Part shown: positions 1 through 30,572 of the stretch, piece by piece
Position numbering within the stretch: the stretch's first letter is position 1
Layout of the letters: the number at the start of each line of letters is the position of its first letter
From: a virus
Taxonomy: Duplodnaviria > Heunggongvirae > Uroviricota > Caudoviricetes
Length of the DNA: 31,155 nt
Direction: 5' to 3' (one strand)
IMG/VR virus record: IMGVR_UViG_2548876865_000016
Location: 1-31,155 of that record
Program-made: the position numbers and the translations under genes
Notes under the pieces: generated by a model
Told to the model about the DNA's origin: nothing
The model's input: the letters and a program-made list of their open reading frames with translations, nothing else
Databases searched by the model: none

Positions 1-966
1 ATGAAGCTATACATCATCGGGAATGGGTTTGATCTGCATCACGAACTTGACACGAGCTATTTCTCATTTGGGGATTATCTTCGGAAGAAAGATCGAGACA
101 TTTACGATCACTTGGTTGAGTTTATGGGATTTACTGACTTACCCCCTTCTCTTTCCGCAGTTGATAAGTCAAAACATTCTCTTTGGTCTGATTTCGAAAA
201 CAGCTTAGCGGGTCTGGATACAGAGTCGGTGCTCGAAGAGTTTAGCTATCTTTTACCCCAAATTAGCAGCCCCGATTTTCGTGACAGGGACTGGAACTCA
301 TTATCCATTGAAATGGAACGTATACTAGAAAATTTAACCGAGGGACTTTTAACACAATTCAAGTCATTTATATTGCAGGTTAACTACCCCGAACTTAATT
401 TAAAAAAAAGATTGCGTATCGATTCTGATTCTATCTTTATCAGTTTTAATTACACTGAAACTCTTCAGAAATATTATAGTATTGATGATAGACAAATTTT
501 ATATATTCATGGGAAAGCATCATCAGATCAACAGTTGATTTTAGGTCATGGTATTGACCCTATCAACTTTGAAGAAAAGGAAGCAGTCCCGCCCGAAAAT
601 GCAACCGATGAAGAACTTGAAGAGTGGCGTCAGTGGATGGCTGATAATTACGATCACTCTTATGAAATGGGAAAGCAGACTATTAATAAATACTTCACTT
701 CTTCTTTTAAGAATACTGAAAAAGTCATTGCTGACAGCGCTAAATTTTTTAAAAATCTCAGTAACGTAGACGAAATCATCATCATCGGCCATTCGTTATC
801 ATCTGTAGATGTTCCCTACTTTTCTTTTATACATAGCATTGTTAGTAAAAATACGGAATGGATAGCCACCTATTATCAGGAAACTGAGCGTGAAGCACAT
901 CATACAACATTATGTGAGATTGGCATTAAATCTCCCAAACTGATTTCAGTAAGTAAACTTCTATAA
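1..966 (+). CDS. AbiH-family abortive-infection protein (321 aa; ORF starts at window position 1)
   Basis: N-terminal MKLYIIGNGFDLHHELDTSYFSFGDY matches the AbiH family N-terminal signature as I recall it; clearly AT-richer than the phage backbone; convergent with the tail operon. Confidence 0.55.
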   Translation: MKLYIIGNGFDLHHELDTSYFSFGDYLRKKDRDIYDHLVEFMGFTDLPPSLSAVDKSKHSLWSDFENSLAGLDTESVLEEFSYLLPQISSPDFRDRDWNSLSIEMERILENLTEGLLTQFKSFILQVNYPELNLKKRLRIDSDSIFISFNYTETLQKYYSIDDRQILYIHGKASSDQQLILGHGIDPINFEEKEAVPPENATDEELEEWRQWMADNYDHSYEMGKQTINKYFTSSFKNTEKVIADSAKFFKNLSNVDEIIIIGHSLSSVDVPYFSFIHSIVSKNTEWIATYYQETEREAHHTTLCEIGIKSPKLISVSKLL

Positions 967-4947: not shown

Positions 4948-6870
4948 TTAATATCCCGTTGCCAGCCAGAACAAAGGAAAGCCCTGGTTTGCGTTAAGCC
5001 TTGCCGTCGTATTGGAATATTGCGACACCGAACATTCGAGCGTCCCGGCCACATTCGAGGTAAAAGGCGTGACCTGAATATTCCGGCACGCATTCGGGAA
5101 TGCGATCGGGAACGTAATATTTTGATAACCGGACGTCTGGTTCGTGTAACCCCACTGACGGATCCTTCCTGTTGTTCCGTCGCGCTCCCAGCCGTTTTGC
5201 CCCAGGCTGGCCGTATTTTTCAGGTTATAGCGTGCGTCGCTCTCGGCTTTTGTATACGACCCAATCGACCCCGCCGAAATGGTGATGTTTGCTGTACCGT
5301 TAAATGCCACGCCGTTGATGGTGCGGGCGGTTTGCAATTGTGACGCTGAAACCGCATTACCATTTGACGCAAGAGCGCCAATCTCTGCCGGGGTGGGCTT
5401 GTTCGCCACATCATAGGCTTTTGTCCATGCAGACCAGGTGCCACCATAAAGCGTTCGGGCATAACTGCGGGAATTGTTGTACACGCGATAAATTTGCGTG
5501 ATTCCGGCATGCTTAAGGACTTCAAGAGAACCCGCGATCGCCTCCGGGTAATTCGTCCCGGTTTGCGCCTGCGCGTTCGCGGGCTGGTAATAAAGCCCTG
5601 GCGTGGTGTAGTTGTTCAGATTTGCTGCATTACCAATCCCTTCGGCCAACCGAAAAATATCAGACGGGAAAAGATCGATATTACTCGATAGCGCTCGACC
5701 GTTAACCGTTCGTGTTGAGGGCACGCGACTATTAGCATTATCGTTAGCCGCCTTAACTGCTTTCGGCGTCGCGGCGACGGCTTCCGACTCGCTGTCGGTG
5801 GCGCTGCTCAGTTGAATAATCCCTTTCTGCGCTGTCGTAGCGTCCTGCGCGGTGTATTTACCTTTCGCCAGGTCATAGGTTGCCTTAACCGCTTTCGGCG
5901 TTGCCGCTACTTCTTCAGAATCGCTATCCGTGGCGCTGCTTAATTGCGTGAATCCCTTTGCGGTTGTGGTGGCGTCCGGGTGGTTGCATGATTGTTCGTG
6001 TTTTTTCAGCGCATCACTGGCCTGTTGCTCGTTCAGCGTACCTTTTGGACGAAGATCGGTAATGACGCCGTTTGCGTCGATACTCGCAAGGGCAAACACG
6101 AAATGTTGCTCACCATTCTGCACGTAATCTTTAAGGTCGGCGGCAACCGTGATTTTGCTTTGTACCGCCCAAATGCTCGTAAGCGTTCCCATCCACGCCA
6201 CATCCAGCCAGACCTTAACCGGCTTTGTTGACACGGTAATATTCTGGTTTGCGGCCAACACTGAACGCAGACCGGCAAGGTATCCAGTACCTTTAGTGAC
6301 AAAATACTGGGTGCCTGTTTTCGCGACCAGATAACCCGCATCAAAGAACGACGCCGCACCATACAGATCGATATTTTCGCGGCGCTGGCGTTCATCCATT
6401 GCCGCCAGACGGGCAGTAAAATCAATCTGCCATGTCTCTGCCGGGGTGGTAATTTCCGTTGCTTCCCTGGCTCCGCTGTATTCCATCAGCATGGAACGGA
6501 CCAGAACGTTTCCCTGCTGGCCGTTCGCATTTTTGATTTTACGCTGGGTCGGGGCATGAATAATCATCGCCAGTGTACCGGTGGCTTTATTTGCCAGACC
6601 GATCCAGTTGAAATCAAAATCACCCACATCTGCCCCCATCGTGACGGAATAAACGACAGAGTTTTCATTCACAACACCGGATTTACTCACCACCTGACGA
6701 TAAACAATTTTATCCGCTGCGGGTGCTGTCTCGGTATTATCAATCGGCTTATCAGCATCCAGCCCCGGAATATACGCGAAAATAAATTCATCCAGCGCGA
6801 CGGGCTGATTATTAATAGCCTGCCTGGCTTTCCACTCTGTAAATGCTTTTGTAATAACGGCCTGTGACAT
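4948..6870 (-). CDS. Tail fibre protein (gpH-like) with internal tandem fibre repeat and divergent C-terminal receptor-binding region
   Basis: 640 aa; position between gpI-like and Tfa genes; two tandem ~44-aa repeats (…AKGFTQLSSATDSDSEEVAATPKAVKA… / …QKGIIQLSSATDSESEAVAATPKAVKA…). Confidence 0.8.
   Translation of the reverse strand: MSQAVITKAFTEWKARQAINNQPVALDEFIFAYIPGLDADKPIDNTETAPAADKIVYRQVVSKSGVVNENSVVYSVTMGADVGDFDFNWIGLANKATGTLAMIIHAPTQRKIKNANGQQGNVLVRSMLMEYSGAREATEITTPAETWQIDFTARLAAMDERQRRENIDLYGAASFFDAGYLVAKTGTQYFVTKGTGYLAGLRSVLAANQNITVSTKPVKVWLDVAWMGTLTSIWAVQSKITVAADLKDYVQNGEQHFVFALASIDANGVITDLRPKGTLNEQQASDALKKHEQSCNHPDATTTAKGFTQLSSATDSDSEEVAATPKAVKATYDLAKGKYTAQDATTAQKGIIQLSSATDSESEAVAATPKAVKAANDNANSRVPSTRTVNGRALSSNIDLFPSDIFRLAEGIGNAANLNNYTTPGLYYQPANAQAQTGTNYPEAIAGSLEVLKHAGITQIYRVYNNSRSYARTLYGGTWSAWTKAYDVANKPTPAEIGALASNGNAVSASQLQTARTINGVAFNGTANITISAGSIGSYTKAESDARYNLKNTASLGQNGWERDGTTGRIRQWGYTNQTSGYQNITFPIAFPNACRNIQVTPFTSNVAGTLECSVSQYSNTTARLNANQGFPLFWLATGY
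5750..6013 (-). repeat. Tandem duplication (2 x ~132 bp) inside the tail fibre gene, encoding the phage tail-fibre repeat
   Basis: Near-identical nucleotide blocks starting ~5750 and ~5882 (gccttaac(t/c)gctttcggcg...ggcgctgct...); in-frame 44-codon period. Coordinates approximate. Confidence 0.6.
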
Positions 6871-8980: not shown

Positions 8981-11073
8981 CCTGCGTTAAGCTCCTGCCA
9001 TTCAGCCAGCTGGGCCGGGGTGATTCCATTGGGGGCGTTGATGTAGGTGTCGCCCCACGATTTACGGTTATCCACAGCGGTTTTGCTGTCGGTTTTAACC
9101 TGACTCATCAGGCCGCCGCGTGGGATGTCTGCATTAATTCGGTTCCCCGTCAGCACGGACGGGCTGTTCAGCTTCGACGAACCTGCAGCACTGTCAGGAA
9201 CGACCGCGTTTGCCGGTGGCGAAACGGTTTTCAGGTCGATGTTGACGCCGGGGATCTTGTTTAACTTCTCAACAATCCAGTTATAGGTAGATGCAAAGGT
9301 ATTTTTGAGGACGTCGAAAAGTTTGCTGAATACCCCGCCGATGGTCTGTGCGAACCCTTCAAAGGTGGCGAGCGGGGAAAGACCGGCAAAGAAATCAACC
9401 ACCACGGCCCAGCCGTCAGTAATGGATTGCCAGACCTGCGCAAACACCTGGCCCACCTGTTCAGCGACTGACATCACCCAGGCAAAAGCCGCCGTATCCA
9501 TGATCGCTGCCGCCAGTTCTTCCCAGTGGGTGACGACATACCAGACCCCCACAGCCAGAAGCGCCAGTCCGGCAATAATCAGGGTGATCGGACTCATCAG
9601 GAATTGCATTGCAGCCCCGGCAAACATGGTCGCCGCACCGTAAACCCGCATGGCAATGGCCCCGGCCTTTAACGCGATATTCCATGCAGCAAGCGCGATG
9701 CGACAGACGCCCGTCCACAGCGCCAGCAATTTTGACTGGATCCATAATGCGGCCAGACCGATGCGCGTCGTCAGCAGGGACGGACGCAACAGGTTGAGCG
9801 TCCATAACAGGAGTTTCCATGCACCGCCCAGCACTTTTGCGATTGCGGCCAGCCCCATCATGGTGAAGCCAAAGCCCCCCATCACGATATTGACCGCCGC
9901 CCCGGCCAGCCCGAAGGACAGCACGCCCAGGGTGATGTAACCCAGCCAGCGGGCAATATTCGGGAACATATCCAGCCAGCGGGCAAATTTTGTCCCCACG
10001 TCGGCAATACGGTTCATCAGCGGTGACAGAATAGGGATCAGCGTGTTACCAATCGCCACGCGAATGGCAAAGAATGTCGCTTTGATACGCTCCCACGGCT
10101 CGGCCATTCGTGCGGCCATTTCCTGGGCGCGTTTCATCCCGTCGTTTCGGCCCAGCTCGGTGATACTGCGATTTAATTTATCCTGCTGGCCGTACAGCTT
10201 TTTGATAACGTCAGCACCGCCACCGAACGCGGCGTCCAGCGCCTGTTGTGCCTTGACGTTCCCTTCAATGCTCTGCCCGTATTTACTCTGGAGTTTTTGC
10301 AGAATGTCGCCCATCGGCAGCATTTTGCCGGTGGCATCGACAAAGCTCATACCCAGCTTTTCAGCGGCAGCCGGGGCGCTGCGTAAAAACTGCTCGTAGA
10401 TCCCGCTGGCCTCAGTACCCAGCGTGCGCGAAAGCGTACCCAGGACGGCGAACTGTTCATCCAGGCTGACGCCAAAGTCAGCACCGGCACTTTTCGTCCC
10501 CTCGATAAGCTCCTGCATGGTCTGCATTTTCACGCCGAAGTTTTGCACCATGTACGCGGTTTTCCCTGCCAGCTCTTCGGCAAAACGCACATGGCCCAGA
10601 CTGGACAACTCCGCGTTGAAACGTGACGCCATCGCGCCGATGTATTCGCCTGCCTCTTCGCCGCTGGCCTTGACGCCTGCCGCAAGGGTATTGGCCGCGA
10701 TGGTGACGCGGGGCAGGTCCAGATCGGACAGGCCCGCCATTGCACCTTTCATCGCGTAGCTTGACCGGACCACATCAACGGCCCCTTTGCCGTAGCGCAT
10801 ACTGAATCGCATAGCTTCGCCGGACAGACGCTTCAGCGCGTCCTCTGCCACGCCTTTGGAACCCACTTCTGCAAGTGCGGCGTTCATCTCATATGCCGGA
10901 CCCACCACGCCCGCGATGGACTGCGCCACGCCCCAGACAGCCGCCGCACCGATCCCGATTTTTGTAAAAGATGCCTGCGATTTTTCAGCAAAGCCGGACA
11001 GCGAAGACTGGGCCGTTTTTAATGGCCGCGTCAGCTTATCGATCAGGCTCAGGGTAAAATCCAGGTGGCTCAT
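8977..11073 (-). CDS. Tail tape measure protein
   Basis: 698 aa, Ala/Gly-rich with internal hydrophobic segments; directly downstream of the chaperone gene and its frameshift extension. Confidence 0.85.
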   Translation of the reverse strand: MSHLDFTLSLIDKLTRPLKTAQSSLSGFAEKSQASFTKIGIGAAAVWGVAQSIAGVVGPAYEMNAALAEVGSKGVAEDALKRLSGEAMRFSMRYGKGAVDVVRSSYAMKGAMAGLSDLDLPRVTIAANTLAAGVKASGEEAGEYIGAMASRFNAELSSLGHVRFAEELAGKTAYMVQNFGVKMQTMQELIEGTKSAGADFGVSLDEQFAVLGTLSRTLGTEASGIYEQFLRSAPAAAEKLGMSFVDATGKMLPMGDILQKLQSKYGQSIEGNVKAQQALDAAFGGGADVIKKLYGQQDKLNRSITELGRNDGMKRAQEMAARMAEPWERIKATFFAIRVAIGNTLIPILSPLMNRIADVGTKFARWLDMFPNIARWLGYITLGVLSFGLAGAAVNIVMGGFGFTMMGLAAIAKVLGGAWKLLLWTLNLLRPSLLTTRIGLAALWIQSKLLALWTGVCRIALAAWNIALKAGAIAMRVYGAATMFAGAAMQFLMSPITLIIAGLALLAVGVWYVVTHWEELAAAIMDTAAFAWVMSVAEQVGQVFAQVWQSITDGWAVVVDFFAGLSPLATFEGFAQTIGGVFSKLFDVLKNTFASTYNWIVEKLNKIPGVNIDLKTVSPPANAVVPDSAAGSSKLNSPSVLTGNRINADIPRGGLMSQVKTDSKTAVDNRKSWGDTYINAPNGITPAQLAEWQELNAG

Positions 11074-11532: not shown

Positions 11533-11825
11533 TGTGCTAATTCCTTACGTTGTCGAATGATGCCCACCAAGGCGTTATGTCGGGCGGCGCAGTCGGTATA
11601 CATCTGCCGGTAGGCTGTCAGCGCCGCGTCAAAGTCATTTCCGGTCGGTCCGGCCAGACGTGGCAGCGTGACCGGGCAAAGTGTCAGCTGGTTTTCCTGA
11701 TAATTCTCGTTCGGCTTGATCTGCACTTTCGTTGAACAACCGGACGTAATCATCAGAAGCGCAAACGTTGCTAAAAACCGGCTTAATGATTTCTGTGCGA
11801 ATAACCCGTTCCGTGTGCCTTTCAT
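11529..11825 (-). CDS. o-spanin (Rz1 / LysC-like outer-membrane lipoprotein)
   Basis: 98 aa; signal peptide with lipobox-like ...LLMITSG|C; Pro-containing mature part; starts out of frame inside the i-spanin gene and extends past it (overlapped-spanin architecture). Confidence 0.5.
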   Translation of the reverse strand: MKGTRNGLFAQKSLSRFLATFALLMITSGCSTKVQIKPNENYQENQLTLCPVTLPRLAGPTGNDFDAALTAYRQMYTDCAARHNALVGIIRQRKELAQ

Positions 11826-22252: not shown

Positions 22253-22672
22253 TTACGCAGCCTTGTTAACTTTTTGATGGGCTAACTTCAATGCTGGGAT
22301 GTAGGCAGGATGTAAAGCGCCCATAACTGGTGACGTTGGTGCTTCGCCACTTTTCATGGGCGCAAGATTGAACCAGTCACTGTTATAGGGGAGTTTTATG
22401 AGCGTACTCATATCAAATTTAGTGTCGTGCGCAAGTCCAGAGATAGCAAACCCAGCATCAACAGTTCTGATAACAAACTCAGTACCGTAAATTCTGTCAG
22501 TTTTCTGACTTGTTCCGTAGACAACCATTACTGCATTATCTTCTTCTGCTACCTTCACAACCAGTGAAGGGCGAGGTTTTGGGCCAGGTTCCCCTGGAAC
22601 CTGAGGAAAGTAACACCAAACGATATCGCCTGGCTCAGGGAGGGGGGTATAGTTTTTTGTATTGGTTGCCAT
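22253..22672 (-). CDS. PemK/MazF-fold protein (putative toxin / endoribonuclease)
   Basis: 139 aa; N-terminal PEPGDIVWCYFPQVPGEPGPKPRPSLVV resembles the MazF/Kid signature (GD-I/L-W-x-F...RP-x-VV); strong SD (AAGGAG) upstream; AT-richer than backbone. Confidence 0.55.
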   Translation of the reverse strand: MATNTKNYTPLPEPGDIVWCYFPQVPGEPGPKPRPSLVVKVAEEDNAVMVVYGTSQKTDRIYGTEFVIRTVDAGFAISGLAHDTKFDMSTLIKLPYNSDWFNLAPMKSGEAPTSPVMGALHPAYIPALKLAHQKVNKAA

Positions 22673-22681
22673 TTGTTCTCC

Positions 22682-22966
22682 TTACAAGAGACTTTTAGTA
22701 AATCGCTCCTCCGGTATATCGCTCGCGGTAGAAAGCTCACGAATAGTTTGGATTTGAGCTGTTGTCAGCGGCCCGTCATCTTTTTCGTAATGTGGCAGAA
22801 AAGCATCAGCCAGTTTACGTAATGCCAAATGGGCCAGTTCGGTTTTTGTCATCCCTGTCAGCGTCATCAGCGCATCCAGCGTATAGCCGCTGATAGCGTT
22901 CGGCGTATCCTTCTCTCTTAATCGAAGAACGAAATCGCCGGTTTTTTTAACGACGTGTACTGTCAT
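22682..22966 (-). CDS. Unknown protein upstream of the MazF-like gene (candidate antitoxin/partner)
   Basis: 94 aa; 9-nt gap to downstream gene; GGAG SD; no resemblance to MazE/PemI seen by eye. Confidence 0.4.
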   Translation of the reverse strand: MTVHVVKKTGDFVLRLREKDTPNAISGYTLDALMTLTGMTKTELAHLALRKLADAFLPHYEKDDGPLTTAQIQTIRELSTASDIPEERFTKSLL

Positions 22967-23243: not shown

Positions 23244-25859
23244 TCATTCTTTTGGGTGGCGACCTTCCACATCCGCCAGCATTTTTTGATACTCCCCGAT
23301 CGGATCAAACCGCAGACGCGTGGCATCAATGCCGTGGTTATCCCGCAGGCGTTCCCATAATTTATTTACCGTCTGTGACTCATCGGGTAATTGACGTGTT
23401 ATCAACTGACCGCCAGCGCTGGCCTGATAAATTTTGCCGTCTATCTCCAGACGGCTCCCCATTAACAACGAAACGGCCTGAATCTCTGAAATCTCAACTG
23501 AATACAACGCCGCATCAGCCAACAGGCTGGCAACCGCAGGGGTAAGCGATGCCCGTCTGGCTTTTTCAGCCGTCGATCTGACCTCGGTTTTTTCGACAGC
23601 AGAACGCCAGGCGACATCTAATTCGCTTCCTGGCTCATAAGGTGATCCGCTTTGCTGCCTTTTGAATGGTGTTTCACGTAGTCGCCGCATCAATTTGCGC
23701 CGCGTTGTCTGGTCCATGTTTTCAAAATCGACGATTTCCTCTTCTGATTCTTCTGTCATACCCTCCACATCAGGCAAAAAATCGGTGATTTTTTCGTCTT
23801 CCGTAGAGTTATTGACAGAACTCCAAGCGTCGCCGGTTGGCGACGGCAAAAGGTCAACCCCCAAACCAGGGCCGTTTTTGGCCCCGGTGGCGGCTTTGGA
23901 TTTGGCGCGGATTTTCCACTTAACCAGACGGGTGCAAATACGGGAGGCATCACCCAGACGCGGCGACCAGACCCCGAATACCTTTTCGGGGATCTCACAA
24001 TAGGCGTTCATTTCATCAGCTGGCTGATAGGCCAGACGGACGACATAGTTTTCTCGCGGGATCAAAACACCGCCCTGGCGGATGATGTAGGTAGCAAAGC
24101 ACCCGACATCGGCAGCGGCGCAAACCGCATCCATTGCAGGATCCACAAGCAGCGGCGCACCGCGTTTGAAGGTATTGTCAATTTTCTGGCGGGTCGTGAT
24201 CTGATTGCTCAGTTTGCGCAGCTCGCGGTAAACCGATATGGGCGGCTGTCCGATAGGCTGAAACTGGCGGATACGGTGAAGCGACGCCCAGGCCATTGCA
24301 TATTTGGCGGTTTCATTCAGCGGTTTGCCGCTTTCGTCGTCCAGTTCACCGGCCAGCGCGTGGCCGTCGATATTCTTCGAAATGTATTTAGCGATGTATG
24401 CCGTTGCTGACCCTTTCCGTGGGTCCATTTTTTTTGACTTGAAACGAGCACCGGTATTACGGCCCAGCTCGTCGCGGTCTTCCGCAATGAAGTAGGCGCG
24501 AAGGATCGCAATCGTGGCTTTGACTTGCTCTTGTGGCATAAATAGCAACGCGTGCCAGTGTGGTGTCCCATCGTGATGCGGCTCGGCGACGCGGAAGCCA
24601 TAAGGGCGCAAATCTTCGCGTTTCAGTTTGGCGGTTGCCCGGTTCCATACTCGGCATAAATAGCGCTGCGCCTGGGCGACGGTGGAATGATTCCATTTGG
24701 CGTTATGGTGGCCGGACGCAATATTACTGTGATATTTCGACGGGCAAGTGATGGTCAGGAAGATGCCAACATCGCCGCGACTTTGGGCGACAAGCTCAAC
24801 CCCAGCCATTCGGGCCATAAGCTCATGGCGACGAATAGCCGGGTTAGACGTGGATTTATTAATCATTTCCTCAAGCGACGAAACGTTGCCGTCTTCGTCT
24901 ACCAGTTCATGACTTTTGAAAAAATCCCGGTGTTTACGGCGCTGTTCCTGCCACTCGATCAGGCTGGAAACGCTAACGTAGGCGTGCGCTTTTTTATTTA
25001 CCGCGCCAACAGCACGCAGCTGGTTCTCGCGCCAGTCACAACGCAAGCGCCAGATTTTACGCCCCCACCAGTCAGGCGAAGCCATACGCAAAATGGCCGT
25101 GCATATGCGCTCGCGTTCCCACGGCGCATACCATGCAGGCGGTACAATGCGAAGCGCCAGCATTTCGCGGCCCTGGTGGCAATAAAGCCAGTCCAATTCT
25201 TCGACGTTCATGTCTGAAACATTCCGTCCCAGGGCTTCGCATTCCGTCCCCAGCATTTCAGCCATGCGGCTGGCGATCTCATTAGCGGCGCTCAGTGCTT
25301 CCCGCTTTGTGAAATCAGCCAGACGTTGCCAGCGCCCGAACCAGTACGCAGCCAGTTCGCCGGTGATATCAGGCGAAACACCTTGCCTTGTGCGTACAAC
25401 ATCAAGACGCAGCAATGATTTTTTCACGGTCCCCATAAGAAAATCATTGGTGTGTCTGGTTTCACGGTTGACCCGTAACCACTCAATTTTTTTACGCCAG
25501 ACTTCACGAATGAAGAACGGTTCTGATAATAAACGCGCTTCGACACCTTCGGGCGTATTGACCCAGGCTGCCGTCGTAGCTTTAGCGGCTTCCATTTCCT
25601 GCCGGATTATATTTTGATGGGCGGCCAGTAGCAGGCCGTACGGTTCGTACCTGTCCAGCGCCTGGATAAGCGCGTTACGGTCCCGAACCTCGTCGGGGTT
25701 GTAACCGGCGCGTTTGAAGATGTGATCGATGTGTTTTTTTACGGCTGGATGATGTACCACCGCCCCTGCAAGCGGGGCGATTTTTTTCGGTTCGTAGGTG
25801 TACAGGCCAATAGCTGGGCGCGGCGCGTTCCAGGGCCATGCAAAAGCGGTGTCAGACAT
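23244..25859 (-). CDS. A: Rolling-circle replication initiator (P2 gpA-like HUH endonuclease); start taken at ATG 25859 (ORF track GTG at 25877)
   Basis: ~871 aa; HUH-type motif (TPHWHALLF) and paired Tyr (ATAYIAKYISK); ATG at 25857-25859 lies 2 nt after the upstream small-ORF stop. Confidence 0.8.
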   Translation of the reverse strand: MSDTAFAWPWNAPRPAIGLYTYEPKKIAPLAGAVVHHPAVKKHIDHIFKRAGYNPDEVRDRNALIQALDRYEPYGLLLAAHQNIIRQEMEAAKATTAAWVNTPEGVEARLLSEPFFIREVWRKKIEWLRVNRETRHTNDFLMGTVKKSLLRLDVVRTRQGVSPDITGELAAYWFGRWQRLADFTKREALSAANEIASRMAEMLGTECEALGRNVSDMNVEELDWLYCHQGREMLALRIVPPAWYAPWERERICTAILRMASPDWWGRKIWRLRCDWRENQLRAVGAVNKKAHAYVSVSSLIEWQEQRRKHRDFFKSHELVDEDGNVSSLEEMINKSTSNPAIRRHELMARMAGVELVAQSRGDVGIFLTITCPSKYHSNIASGHHNAKWNHSTVAQAQRYLCRVWNRATAKLKREDLRPYGFRVAEPHHDGTPHWHALLFMPQEQVKATIAILRAYFIAEDRDELGRNTGARFKSKKMDPRKGSATAYIAKYISKNIDGHALAGELDDESGKPLNETAKYAMAWASLHRIRQFQPIGQPPISVYRELRKLSNQITTRQKIDNTFKRGAPLLVDPAMDAVCAAADVGCFATYIIRQGGVLIPRENYVVRLAYQPADEMNAYCEIPEKVFGVWSPRLGDASRICTRLVKWKIRAKSKAATGAKNGPGLGVDLLPSPTGDAWSSVNNSTEDEKITDFLPDVEGMTEESEEEIVDFENMDQTTRRKLMRRLRETPFKRQQSGSPYEPGSELDVAWRSAVEKTEVRSTAEKARRASLTPAVASLLADAALYSVEISEIQAVSLLMGSRLEIDGKIYQASAGGQLITRQLPDESQTVNKLWERLRDNHGIDATRLRFDPIGEYQKMLADVEGRHPKE

Positions 25860-26073
25860 TGGATGCCCCGCTATCACCCTCCCGCAGGGAATGCTTTTCG
25901 ATTAGCGGGTCGAGTAACACATTGAAAGAAATCAACAGCGTGTTTGCGGCTTCACTTCCGGCGAGAACACCCGCCAACGTTGCGTGTGCAAGGGCCAGTG
26001 TTTTGGCTTCGTTAAGCGCAGCCAGTGCGCCGCGCTGGTATTCCGAAAGACCGTTATTAATTTTGCTAGCCAT
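25852..26073 (-). CDS. Small hypothetical protein (73 aa), translationally coupled to dam
   Basis: ATG overlaps the dam stop (ATGA); its stop abuts the proposed start of gene A. Confidence 0.35.
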   Translation of the reverse strand: MASKINNGLSEYQRGALAALNEAKTLALAHATLAGVLAGSEAANTLLISFNVLLDPLIEKHSLREGDSGASNV

Positions 26074-27513: not shown

Positions 27514-27735
27514 CTACGCAAAGATGCCCATTAAGCGGGAAAACCAGCGGCGCTTATTACGCGGGCGCGACATGAACGGTACACGGCAGTTTTTAACAAA
27601 TTGAACATCTACCGCTTTCGGCTGGAAGAACCTCCCGTCCGGGGTTTCAATCCAGCCACGTTGATGCTGACGGTGGGTGATCTGCTGGCCGTGCGTGAGC
27701 AGACTGGCGAGTGAAGGGCATTGTGTTAATTCCAT
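27514..27735 (-). CDS. Small hypothetical early protein (start ambiguous; ATG 27735 has best SD, ORF track start 27807)
   Basis: Basic C-terminus (SRPRNKRRWFSRL); GGAG SD before ATG at 27733-27735. Confidence 0.3.
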   Translation of the reverse strand: MELTQCPSLASLLTHGQQITHRQHQRGWIETPDGRFFQPKAVDVQFVKNCRVPFMSRPRNKRRWFSRLMGIFA

Positions 27736-27873
27736 GTTAATCTCCGTCATATTGAAAAGATGCCGGGATACGACCCCACGCCCGGCGCGTGTTTCCTGTG
27801 ATAACATCGCTATGCCTGTGTAACTTTGAGCGGTGAATCAGGCATAACAATCACCAACACAGAAGGAGTTGTA

Positions 27874-28353
27874 ATGAAATTCAATGTATTTTTTAAAAAA
27901 GACCACGGATCACACTGGGTGCTTTCCGATGGTGCCCCCCTCTTTGAAAGTCCACTATTTGAAACAAGACCTAAAGCCATTGATGACCTTGAGAACTTTG
28001 TAGGCCTTATGGAATCGCCAATCTTTATTAAGGCTGGTGACGATATTAATTCTGGCGATACAGAAAACTGTCCATCTGTAGTTATTTCTTTAAAACAGCA
28101 TGAATCGCTATGGGGCTGGGAATTATTTATCTCAAAAAATGGACAACTGTCTAAAGTTACCGAAAATTCAGGAAATGGCTTTGACTCATTAGAATTAGCA
28201 AAGCAAAATGCCCAGTTTTTCCTTAATGCCATTATCGACGCTCCTATTCTGGATCAAGCCGATGTCGCTATCCCCGGCATGCACTTCTCAAAATCTTTCG
28301 AGGAAACGCACCACATTGGTGACACTCACCCATCTAGTAAATGGTTCAAATAA
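27874..28353 (+). CDS. Hypothetical protein with two DUF1508/YegP-like repeats (tentative), inverted relative to the early operon
   Basis: 159 aa; AAGGAG SD 7 nt upstream of ATG; repeat-like segments HWVLSDGAPLFES... and WGWELFISKNGQLSKVTENSGNGFDSLELAKQNA; AT-richer than backbone. Confidence 0.45.
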   Translation: MKFNVFFKKDHGSHWVLSDGAPLFESPLFETRPKAIDDLENFVGLMESPIFIKAGDDINSGDTENCPSVVISLKQHESLWGWELFISKNGQLSKVTENSGNGFDSLELAKQNAQFFLNAIIDAPILDQADVAIPGMHFSKSFEETHHIGDTHPSSKWFK

Positions 28354-28357
28354 TCCA

Positions 28358-28705
28358 TCACTGTGGCGTTATCGTTTTTCTTGTGCGAGGTGGTACATCT
28401 CGCACGGTTTCTTCATCAACAATCAACTCATAAACTCTGATGCTGTTATCACCTTTTGATACGTCATCAAATACCTGAAAAAGAAAACTCATGAATTGCT
28501 CATAAGTGACGCTGGGTTCAACATACCCACCAGTAACCTCAATTAATGGTGTTAGTCCTGAATTATCTGCTAACGAAACGCAGTCCAACTTATCCAAACG
28601 GAAAAAGTAATTACCGCAAGGTGTTCTTTTATCCTTAATCCGTATAAACACATTTGATAACGCTGTATGACTATCTGAGAGTTTAAAGATTTTTGCCGTG
28701 TCCAT
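28358..28705 (-). CDS. Hypothetical protein (115 aa from ATG 28705; ORF-track TTG at 28714)
   Basis: First gene downstream of cox in the early operon; AT-rich; convergent with and 4 nt from the 27874..28353 gene. Confidence 0.4.
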   Translation of the reverse strand: MDTAKIFKLSDSHTALSNVFIRIKDKRTPCGNYFFRLDKLDCVSLADNSGLTPLIEVTGGYVEPSVTYEQFMSFLFQVFDDVSKGDNSIRVYELIVDEETVRDVPPRTRKTITPQ

Positions 28706-28727
28706 TTTATTCAACCCTGTAAGTTGC

Positions 28728-29003
28728 TTATGATGGATTGCCCAGACCCAACCACATTAACCACCCTTCCCTAATTTCCTTCGGGCGGCTCTCATACGCC
28801 ATTTTCATGCCGTTGTTCCAGGCTGGAAGATAGACCCAGTACTCACCTGCCCGCCCGGAAGTTGATTGCGGATCGGTCATTTCAACTACAGGTAGCTTTC
28901 CTTTTTCAATCATCCCCTTCACCGCTGCCGGTGTTTTACCAATGAGTTTTGCGAACTCCTGATATGGGACGGCATCTGTGCTTAACGCGATCTGTTTAAC
29001 CAT
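28728..29003 (-). CDS. cox: Cox-like excisionase / early-operon regulator
   Basis: 91 aa (same as P2 Cox); divergent from C across a short switch region; ...GRAGEYWVYLPAWNNG...GWLMWLGLG... as in P2 Cox. Confidence 0.8.
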   Translation of the reverse strand: MVKQIALSTDAVPYQEFAKLIGKTPAAVKGMIEKGKLPVVEMTDPQSTSGRAGEYWVYLPAWNNGMKMAYESRPKEIREGWLMWLGLGNPS

Positions 29004-29065
29004 TTAAGGCCCTCACAAGTTTAAGAATCGTCACCAATGGCTTATAGTTGCTTTTGATGTTCATT

Positions 29066-29119: not shown

Positions 29120-29419
29120 ATGTCAAACGCCTTAAACGAGAAAATTGTACTCATCAGAAAGTCTGAGTATCTCAGCAGACAGCAACTTGCTGATTTAACA
29201 GGCATTCCCTATGGCACTTTAAGTTATTACGAGAGTGGTCGTTCTACACCGCCCACGGACGTAATGATGAGGATTTTGCAAATGCCCCAGTTCAGCAAAT
29301 ACACGTTGTGGTTTATGACCGATCAGGTTGCTCCCGAAGCCGGTCAGATAGCACCGGCCCTCGCACACTTTGGGCAAGATGTAACAACATCGCAGCACTC
29401 AGACCAAAAGATTGGTTAA
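29120..29419 (+). CDS. C: Immunity repressor C (P2 C-like)
   Basis: 99 aa (same as P2 C); N-terminal ...EKIVLIRKSEYLSRQQLADLTGIPYGTLSYYESGRSTPP... HTH; directly upstream of int. Confidence 0.85.
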   Translation: MSNALNEKIVLIRKSEYLSRQQLADLTGIPYGTLSYYESGRSTPPTDVMMRILQMPQFSKYTLWFMTDQVAPEAGQIAPALAHFGQDVTTSQHSDQKIG

Positions 29420-29564: not shown

Positions 29565-30572
29565 ATGACAATTAAGAAACTCGATGATGGTCGTTATGAA
29601 GTGGATATCAGACCTGCAGGGCGCAACGGAAAGCGCATCCGCAGGAAATTTGACAAGAAAAGTGAGGCTGTAGCTTTTGAGAAACACACTCAATACAACC
29701 ATCACGATAAAGAATGGCTAGCTAAACCGACAGATAAGCGGCATCTGTCTGAATTAACAAAAGTCTGGTGGGATCTGAAAGGCAAGCATGAAGAACACGG
29801 AAAATCCAATTTGGGTAAGATTGAAATCTTTACCCGGATCACTGATGACCCTTGCGCGTTCCAGATAACCAAAGCGCTTATTAGCCAGTACAGCATGACT
29901 CGCAGAGGGCAAGGCATAAAACCGGCCAGTATTAACCGCGACCTTACCTGCCTGAGTGGTATGTTTACTGCGCTAATTGATGCGGAACTGTTTTTTGGCG
30001 AACACCCTTTCAGAGGAATGAAAAAGCTCAAGGAGCAGAAACCAGAAACAGGCTATCTGACGCAGGAAGAAATAACATTGTTACTTGCCAATCTTGACGG
30101 GGACAACAAGAAAATCGCGATCCTCTGTTTAAGTACCGGCGCTCGATGGGGTGAAGCCGCGAAACTGAAAGCTGAGAACGTAATACAGAATCGGGTGACG
30201 TTCGTTAAAACAAAGACGAACAAACCGCGCACAGTCCCTATCTCTGAGGAAGTTGCTGTAATGATTGCGGGTAAAGGTTATCTGTTCCCTGATGCCTCAT
30301 ATCCGAAGTTCAGGCGAACAATGAAAGATGTAAAACCAGATCTACCGGACGGGCAAGCAACTCACGCATTGCGTCACAGTTTTGCTACCCACTTTATGAT
30401 TAACGGCGGGAGTATCATCACCCTGCAGAGAATACTGGGACATTCACGCATAGAGCAGACAATGGTCTATGCGCACTTTGCCCCGGAGTATCTTCAGGAT
30501 GCTGTTTCACTCAATCCGCTACGTGGTGGCGTTGACTCCATGAGTGTCCACACTGTGTCCACAGTAGGGTAG
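29565..30572 (+). CDS. int: Tyrosine integrase (P2 Int-like)
   Basis: 335 aa (P2 Int 337 aa); catalytic-box residues ...HALRHSFATHF... and ...LGHSRIEQTMVYAH...; transcribed toward the att core. Confidence 0.95.
   Translation: MTIKKLDDGRYEVDIRPAGRNGKRIRRKFDKKSEAVAFEKHTQYNHHDKEWLAKPTDKRHLSELTKVWWDLKGKHEEHGKSNLGKIEIFTRITDDPCAFQITKALISQYSMTRRGQGIKPASINRDLTCLSGMFTALIDAELFFGEHPFRGMKKLKEQKPETGYLTQEEITLLLANLDGDNKKIAILCLSTGARWGEAAKLKAENVIQNRVTFVKTKTNKPRTVPISEEVAVMIAGKGYLFPDASYPKFRRTMKDVKPDLPDGQATHALRHSFATHFMINGGSIITLQRILGHSRIEQTMVYAHFAPEYLQDAVSLNPLRGGVDSMSVHTVSTVG

Follow-up and report, generated by a model that had tools for sequence, protein, structure and literature searches.

The DNA analysed here (the window, 31,155 nt) covers the right half of an E. 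coli P2-like prophage integrated beside yegR; E. coli matches the yegR flank at 99.1% identity and is also the recorded source of the exact protein sequences. Since a Pe-like and a Pc-like promoter face each other as they do in P2, the genes from cox to A constitute the early lytic operon (Table 1). Between cox and a 186-type fil homologue lie two genes, orf115, which begins at an ATG 22 nt after cox and reads with the operon, and orf159, which reads towards it, the two stop codons being separated by only 4 nt (28354-28357). This convergent arrangement had been described in a first-pass annotation of the sequence, as had the inversion of the plus-strand gene relative to the cox-to-A operon, and both are borne out: orf159 is the sole gene of the interval reading the opposite way, against cox, orf115, fil, orf131, dam and A. 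The strong Shine-Dalgarno sequence and the upstream intergenic region reported for this gene were likewise found, the latter being 138 nt of non-coding DNA between the fil start at 27735 and position 27874. The ORF positions in that annotation hold as well, except that the start given for orf159, 27826, corresponds to a TTG further upstream at which the mechanical ORF opens, whereas every homologue starts at the ATG at 27874. The slot is, as had been claimed, the one in which the P2 map shows gene B, together with orf78, and no B homologue was found in the interval of this phage in the ORF list or by Pfam and PHROG searches.

Table 1. Genes and predicted signals at the cox-proximal locus (window positions, unless another locus is named)
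Feature	Position	Strand	Basis or remark
int	29565-30572	+	
C-type repressor	29120-29419	+	
Pe-like promoter, TTGACA-17-TACTAT	29126 to 29098	-	Promoter scan; P2 map; reads cox
Pc-like promoter	29021-29048	+	Faces the Pe-like promoter, P2 arrangement
cox, right-hand cassette flank	28728-29003	-	PF10743 at 5.9e-43
orf115 (115 aa)	28358-28705	-	Follows cox directly; reads with the early (Pe) operon
3' hairpin of the orf159 transcript, 10-12 bp, then TTTCTTC	28381-28407	+	Terminator-like call; covariation
orf159 (159 aa)	27874-28353	+	Full-length match to a PHROG without assigned function
Shine-Dalgarno sequence AAGGAG	27863-27868	+	5 nt before the ATG
CA-rich leader	27846-27862	+	Directly after the 5' stem-loop
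5' stem-loop of the predicted orf159 mRNA, ATGCCTG / 20-nt loop / CAGGCAT	27812-27845	+	Covariation; MFE
Predicted extended -10 promoter TGTGATAACAT, read as TG-n-TAACAT	27797-27807	+	No -35 hexamer; TGnTAnnnT at 27799-27807
GC-rich two-stem element, 31 nt	27762-27792	-	Just upstream of the orf159 -10
Element copies elsewhere	L033 4234-4276; L031 4851-4893		
fil homologue (186-type), left-hand cassette flank	27514-27735	-	PF10893; RefSeq annotation of E. coli relatives
orf131, dam, small ORF, replication endonuclease A	A, 23244-25877	- (all)	

Other accessory genes were observed in this prophage and its relatives. An AbiH abortive-infection family protein of 321 aa (window 1-966, +; PF14253, E 9e-62; GC 0.37) is encoded at the prophage far end, and a toxin-antitoxin-like pair, consisting of a PemK/MazF-like toxin (22253-22672, -; PF02452, 1.6e-6) and a 94-aa ORF before it (22682-22966, -), occupies the hotspot between A and ogr/portal. 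A hypothetical protein of ~925 aa replaces this pair in E. coli relatives, and the same hotspot of related prophages holds a NACHT-domain protein or a KAP NTPase (L019 477-2423; L004 1921-3276). Early-operon proteins of ~140 aa adjacent to cox match Pfam Phage_GPO_N (L003 9632-10057; L018 6861-7280), a capsid-scaffold N-terminal domain that is unexpected beside cox, and Salmonella carriers of the cassette (L008-L010 2245-3743) hold genes for an SseK/NleB-type effector and a CesT-like chaperone in the interval from int to the host flank.

The orf159 product is an acidic (pI 5.0), soluble protein, whose homologues form 16 clusters in a search among 5.8 billion sequences. Its alignment has 24 invariant residues and a median pairwise dN/dS of 0.23, and the fold is predicted with confidence: two repeats of beta-beta-beta-alpha-beta topology (E-E-E-H-E at residues 2-53 and 68-127), each resembling the DUF1508 unit in its small fold of a beta-sheet plus a helix, followed by a conserved C-terminal tail, IxDxHPSxKW, that is predicted to be disordered. 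YegP proteins, also known as UPF0339 or DUF1508 (PF07411), are exemplified by PDB 2K49, 6Q2Z and 3BID, and their tandem units form a pseudo-dimer in YegP (2K8E) and SO_3888. The likeness to DUF1508/YegP that had been tentatively suggested therefore stands for the unit fold and the presence of two like repeats, but not for the sequence: orf159 has no match in Pfam, its 16 family members have none to PF07411 at E<=10, and its profile found nothing among PDB sequences at E<=10, so that sequence-profile similarity to UPF0339 is lacking. Neither NCBIfam nor PADLOC gave a match to orf159, and its only PHROG match is to a family without function.

The orf115 product is likewise acidic and soluble, with homologues in 22 clusters of the same search, many invariant alignment residues, a median pairwise dN/dS of 0.14, and a full-length match to a PHROG without assigned function. 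It has no match in Pfam, NCBIfam or PADLOC, its structural model is poor (pLDDT 60) and gave no match in a fold search, and a deep profile search of 1.84 billion representatives returned 15 proteins only, none with a known domain. A diverged DUF1508 repeat was considered for orf115 because of its similar predicted topology, and was rejected at an hhalign probability of 0.1%; the two families are unrelated by this method. Scanning every member of both families against Pfam yielded nothing consistent, neither protein matched a toxin or antitoxin family in Pfam or NCBIfam, with family members scanned too, and orf159, orf115, fil and orf131 gave zero matches at E<=1 in PADLOC-DB 2.0.

The genomic context was recovered for homologues at 44-99% identity in Citrobacter, Salmonella, Serratia and E. 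coli genomes and in metagenomic contigs. The two genes are convergent in all 31 loci that hold both, their aligned ends lying 7-32 nt apart with the sole exception of one IS3-split locus, while in the two loci with orf159 only, either a contig end or an IS interrupts the locus. The association extends to remote pairs at ~30% identity (L031 and L032), which were recognized by the orf115 profile at E ~1e-6 and by hhalign to the orf159 profile at 99% probability. The backbones that bear the pair differ, with a P2-type or a 186-type switch and with gpA or a Toprim primase, and its position also varies, either right after cox or past one or two extra genes; in a Serratia element it lies beyond fil and next to the primase, and a 214-aa protein has the orf115 domain as its C-terminus. 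At every locus, orf115 has the orientation of the early operon and orf159 the opposite one. Therefore, orf159 and orf115 form one module and are obligately linked.

This module is a mobile insert, as the first-pass annotation had supposed from its base composition and orientation. GC and GC3 are 0.40/0.36 for orf159 and 0.39/0.34 for orf115 versus 0.54/0.62 for fil, 0.50/0.53 for cox and 0.54/0.57 for A, and the comparison with the backbone places the low GC sharply within the two genes. An empty site is found in Salmonella phage SI7, which shares the replication genes A, dam, orf131 and fil with this prophage, is 96% identical over dam-orf131-fil, and has cox directly abutting fil. The pair occurs in 19 of 5426 complete E. 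coli genomes, all with the same prophage at yegR, and at 11 loci in IMG/VR; no encoded relative was found in the species-representative genomes (185,579 species), and tblastn of phage and plasmid collections gave no match for the proteins. Comparison of the cox-proximal interval thus shows the pair to be patchy among relatives, and not fixed there with backbone-like composition.

The cassette is also subject to exchange and decay. L069 (7860-8649) as well as L011 and L012 (both 6001-6790) still have the promoter element and, with it, codons 1-107 of orf115, at 91-92% nucleotide identity; an unrelated 91-aa antisense gene replaces orf159 there, and the orf115 homologue (P0019) has a new 76-aa C-terminus, reaching 183 aa in total. 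Because the breakpoints are the orf159 ATG and the 3' hairpin, the cargo and the end of the sense gene next to it have been swapped jointly, and because the N-terminal 107 residues of orf115 now stand beside another antisense gene, the partnership is not exclusive in the orf115 direction. L011 and L012 had been considered as a decayed cassette, which this swap ruled out; L030 and L081 have a genuinely decayed copy. IS3-family elements have entered these cassettes more than once (L002 5740-6953; L024 ~4520; L036 2574-3802). Seven of the 19 E. coli carriers have an IS3 element in the orf159 3' hairpin that truncates orf115 but leaves orf159 intact, so orf159 is tolerated in lysogens whose orf115 is incomplete, and in strain 2013C-4830 one lies between the promoter element and a 68-aa gene. 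This repeated insertion may reflect either a target preference for the hairpins or tolerance of inactivation.

The signals around orf159 point to a self-contained transcription unit with a predicted promoter. The extended -10 motif TGnTAnnnT stands at an invariant position in every copy of the cassette, those with remote homologues or unrelated cargos among them, and predicts a transcription start at ~27813-27816; it was not called by a two-hexamer sigma-70 scan, and we predict it to be the orf159 promoter from consensus plus conservation. In the 5' stem-loop of the predicted mRNA, which is also the minimum free energy structure, both partners have changed in four of the seven pairs and 94.9% of cells are paired, and in the Shine-Dalgarno sequence the AGGAG core shows no variation in alignment A3, with the preceding A kept in most copies. 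A terminator-like hairpin of its own follows 28 nt beyond the orf159 stop, within orf115 codons 101-108 (V101 to T108). It folds at -20.2 kcal/mol (z -2.6) on the plus strand and more weakly on the minus strand, 94.6% of cells are paired, and the third positions of R102 and P106 show synonymous covariation among A-U, G-C and G.U. As the several G.U pairs would be C.A mismatches on the minus strand, selection acts on the plus-strand RNA, and as the minus-strand stem is weaker and lacks a U-run, the hairpin should not halt the early transcript. Its U-tract is weak or not conserved in some loci. The promoter motif, 5' stem-loop, leader with Shine-Dalgarno sequence and 3' hairpin are all conserved and travel with orf159.

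Just upstream of this promoter, a GC-rich two-stem element accompanies the cassette at all loci. Its stems, GCCGGG (27762-67) with CCCGGC (27781-86) and CCACG (27776-80) with CGTGT (27788-92), interleave, and on the minus strand they have the geometry of an H-type pseudoknot, with a loop 1 of 1 nt, then 0 nt, and a loop 3 of 8 nt here and of 6-10 nt, A-rich, in most other copies. Compensatory changes occur in stem 1 (GCCGGG/CCCGGC to GCCGGA/TCCGGC, GCCGAG/CTCGGC or ACCGGG/CCCGGT) and in stem 2 (CCATG/CATGG to CCACG/CGTGG or CCCTG/CAGGG); since MAFFT gapped stem 2, the formal count covers stem 1 only, and stem 2 is given by direct reading and regex counts. The element ends ~18 nt before the fil Shine-Dalgarno sequence and, across loci, 9-20 nt before the ribosome-binding site of the next early gene. 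The loops fit a pseudoknot on the minus and not on the plus strand and the element lies upstream of the predicted orf159 start, so we take it as an RNA structure of the early transcript, inferring both the strand and the pseudoknot itself from the loop lengths; a probable early-mRNA pseudoknot, it would mark the point at which sense and antisense transcripts cease to overlap. Rfam gave no matching family for it. A counterpart of the P2 terminator after gene B was rejected because the sequences are unrelated, and a conserved intrinsic terminator because the U-tract is unconserved on both strands.

The same element, with the -10 motif and leader, is also found 5' of unrelated antisense genes, namely a 63-aa gene (a63) of E. 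coli EC11, a related 64-aa gene, a 68-aa gene (a68) of L035 and an unannotated small ORF in L037, whose convergent sense partners encode 139, 154, 198 and ~119 aa, respectively. (These cox-proximal convergent pairs, none of which has a family assignment, lie at L033 4316-4923, which is E. coli EC11, in L034 and L035, and at L037 2442-2774.) E. coli EC11 shares the cox-C-int region with the phage studied here, and EC11-type phages have B preceded by an antisense cassette. When IMG/VR was scanned for the pattern, the element appeared in at least 119 contigs, mostly of 30-38 kb, and the ORFs downstream of it cluster into at least 27 cargo families, or roughly two dozen without chance pattern matches. 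Among the matches listed, the cargo ORFs range from 37 to 174 aa, and for most listed cargos a convergent ORF ends no more than a few tens of nucleotides away. The cargo ORFs are intact in most copies, and the promoter element is always directed against the early operon. None of the cargo and partner proteins tested had a match in Pfam or NCBIfam, to a PHROG with function, or at significance in PADLOC. Isolated phages with the element are only a few Yersinia and Salmonella P2-like phages, in which it is unannotated. The commonest listed cargo is a 152-aa protein (MTKQSSEYFQLHY...), found in L039 and about 30 other IMG/VR loci and convergent with fil; by eye it has two hydrophobic, membrane-like segments, and it has no Pfam or PADLOC match. 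L099 has two element copies, at 10735-10778 and 11620-11662, 885 nt apart, which suggests tandem antisense cassettes.

Based on these findings, we propose that orf159 and orf115 would be expressed in opposite states of the phage. Having its own predicted promoter, stem-loop, Shine-Dalgarno sequence and 3' hairpin, orf159 should be made in the lysogen, as a moron is, and would be expressed in the repressed prophage while Pe is silent. Lacking a promoter of its own and lying 22 nt past cox, orf115 should be made only when Pe fires, upon infection or derepression. Because the genes converge, each Pe transcript, which would have to cross orf159 to reach fil and the essential A, should be antisense to all of orf159 and its promoter. 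This wiring, with orf159 autonomous, orf115 Pe-dependent and an antisense crossing between them, we consider highly probable. It would act as a reciprocal switch, wherein orf159 is on in lysogeny and off in lytic growth, through collision and duplex RNA, and orf115 behaves in the opposite way.

As for the proteins, orf159 could be a lysogenic-conversion protein that acts as a YegP-like nucleic-acid- or protein-binding pseudo-dimer, likely in conflict between phages or between a phage and a satellite, and orf115 could be a lytic-phase partner or neutralizer through which the prophage would escape its own product. The prophage that holds orf159 also encodes the AbiH protein and the MazF-like pair, and P2-like phages reportedly have a minor hotspot of defence in their int-to-gpA interval (bioRxiv 10.64898/2026.02.27.708500). 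We regard such a conflict and self-neutralizer role as possible but doubtful, whereas the whole account, of a mobile cassette with a reciprocal switch, orf159 as lysogenic conversion factor and orf115 as its partner or neutralizer, stands in our judgement about evenly between right and wrong. A wider generalization is equally tentative as the conflict role, namely that P2-like early operons may hold an undescribed class of antisense cassettes, in which a portable pseudoknot-plus-extended -10 element drives a lysogen gene, mostly with a convergent lytic partner, and which would be new effector/self-neutralizer systems switched by convergent transcription.

Other explanations of the pair have to be weighed against this account. 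The two genes could be independent, orf115 being an ordinary non-essential early gene like P2 orf78 and orf159 an unrelated moron, joined by the embedded terminator. The persistence of orf115 residues 1-107 beside the 91-aa antisense gene in L069, L011 and L012, the truncated orf115 alongside intact orf159 in seven E. coli genomes, and the missing hhalign relation between the families would all agree with that. However, all 31 sufficiently flanked orf159 homologues are partnered by an orf115 domain, even at ~30% identity and in varied backbones and positions; a terminator needs ~30 nt, yet the whole orf115 domain is strongly constrained (omega 0.14); and the other cargo families also have their own specific convergent partners. 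We therefore consider independence unlikely. Somewhat less likely again is a function at the RNA level, wherein the antisense unit would damp leaky early-operon expression in lysogens by transcriptional interference and antisense pairing, in the manner of the convergent promoters Pe/Pc and pR/pL of 186, with the proteins as secondary passengers. This would account for a promoter and pseudoknot element far better conserved than the roughly two dozen listed cargos and for a unit that always opposes the early operon, but passengers would hardly show an omega of 0.23, 24 invariant residues and a confident fold, as orf159 does, or intact cargo ORFs in most copies, and SI7 does without any such unit.

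Two further readings have less in their favour. A toxin-antitoxin or addiction pair stabilizing the prophage is very unlikely: two small acidic proteins, tightly linked, mobile and AT-rich, are what it would predict, and a PemK/MazF-like pair of this kind is found elsewhere in the same prophage, but the genes are convergent and not co-transcribed, so that their products would not be made together, neither protein matches a toxin or antitoxin family in Pfam or NCBIfam, and IS3 disruption of orf115 is tolerated. A replication accessory replacing P2 gene B, which the orf78/B position and the lack of a B homologue in the interval here would suggest, is the least probable and can nearly be dismissed, as SI7 has A, dam, orf131 and fil yet no pair, EC11-type phages hold B plus the antisense cassette ahead of it, and one of the two genes is oriented wrongly for an early replication role.

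Few prophages of enterobacteria are commoner than the P2-like ones, and new anti-phage systems have demonstrably come from their accessory slots. The slot reported here is marked by a searchable 45-nt element and holds roughly two dozen listed protein families, all unannotated. If the logic of one gene for lysogeny and a partner for lytic growth is true, these would form a catalogue of candidate conflict systems, the locus would be a natural case of gene-pair control by convergent transcription over ~1 kb, and orf159 would offer the first functional handle on the YegP/DUF1508 fold; if it is false, the pair is merely another moron.

Among known systems, the face-to-face promoters Pe/Pc of P2 and pR/pL of 186 act by transcriptional interference. 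The cassette shares with them a weak promoter of the lysogenic state facing a strong early lytic one, so that the latter should silence the former, but ~1.3 kb and two complete genes separate its promoters (29098 versus 27807), and its lysogenic unit carries a cargo and not the repressor. BstA with its aba element provides prophage exclusion with built-in self-immunity. Prophage exclusion with self-immunity is likewise known from SieB/Esc of P22 (PMC7067206). The logic hypothesized here would be alike, with a lysogen effector and a cognate element that spares the phage's own lytic cycle; the likeness to both systems is an analogy without homology to orf159 or orf115. P2 old, tin and Z/fun are likewise non-essential, AT-rich genes transcribed independently of the lytic operons, as is predicted for the cassette, which differs from them in its cox-proximal early-operon site and has no sequence or family relation to them and no PADLOC match.

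Morons are, reportedly since Hendrix and colleagues, autonomous promoter-gene-terminator units expressed from a prophage. The concept is used in PMC3573123 and PMC7067206. The cassette resembles them in its predicted promoter, terminator-like hairpin, AT-richness, patchy presence and orientation against lytic neighbours, and it combines variable presence (SI7 empty, 19 of 5426 genomes) with deviant composition (GC 0.39-0.40 versus 0.50-0.54 in the flanks), which supports the moron interpretation given in the first-pass annotation. Taken singly, the locus would count as a moron as these are usually understood and, with PHROGs already existing for both proteins, the pair alone is not categorically new. 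No description of such early-operon antisense cassettes was found in the searchable literature, and searching it by accession number and PHROG id returned nothing on the pair. For P2, only two moron positions have been described, from A to Q/portal and within the tail genes, neither of which is the cassette site (PMC3573123). The cassette departs from the described morons and P2 hotspots in its placement within the essential early operon and not between operons, in the constant, obligatory convergent partner on the sense strand that hosts its terminator, and in a portable promoter and pseudoknot element that is common to many unrelated cargos.
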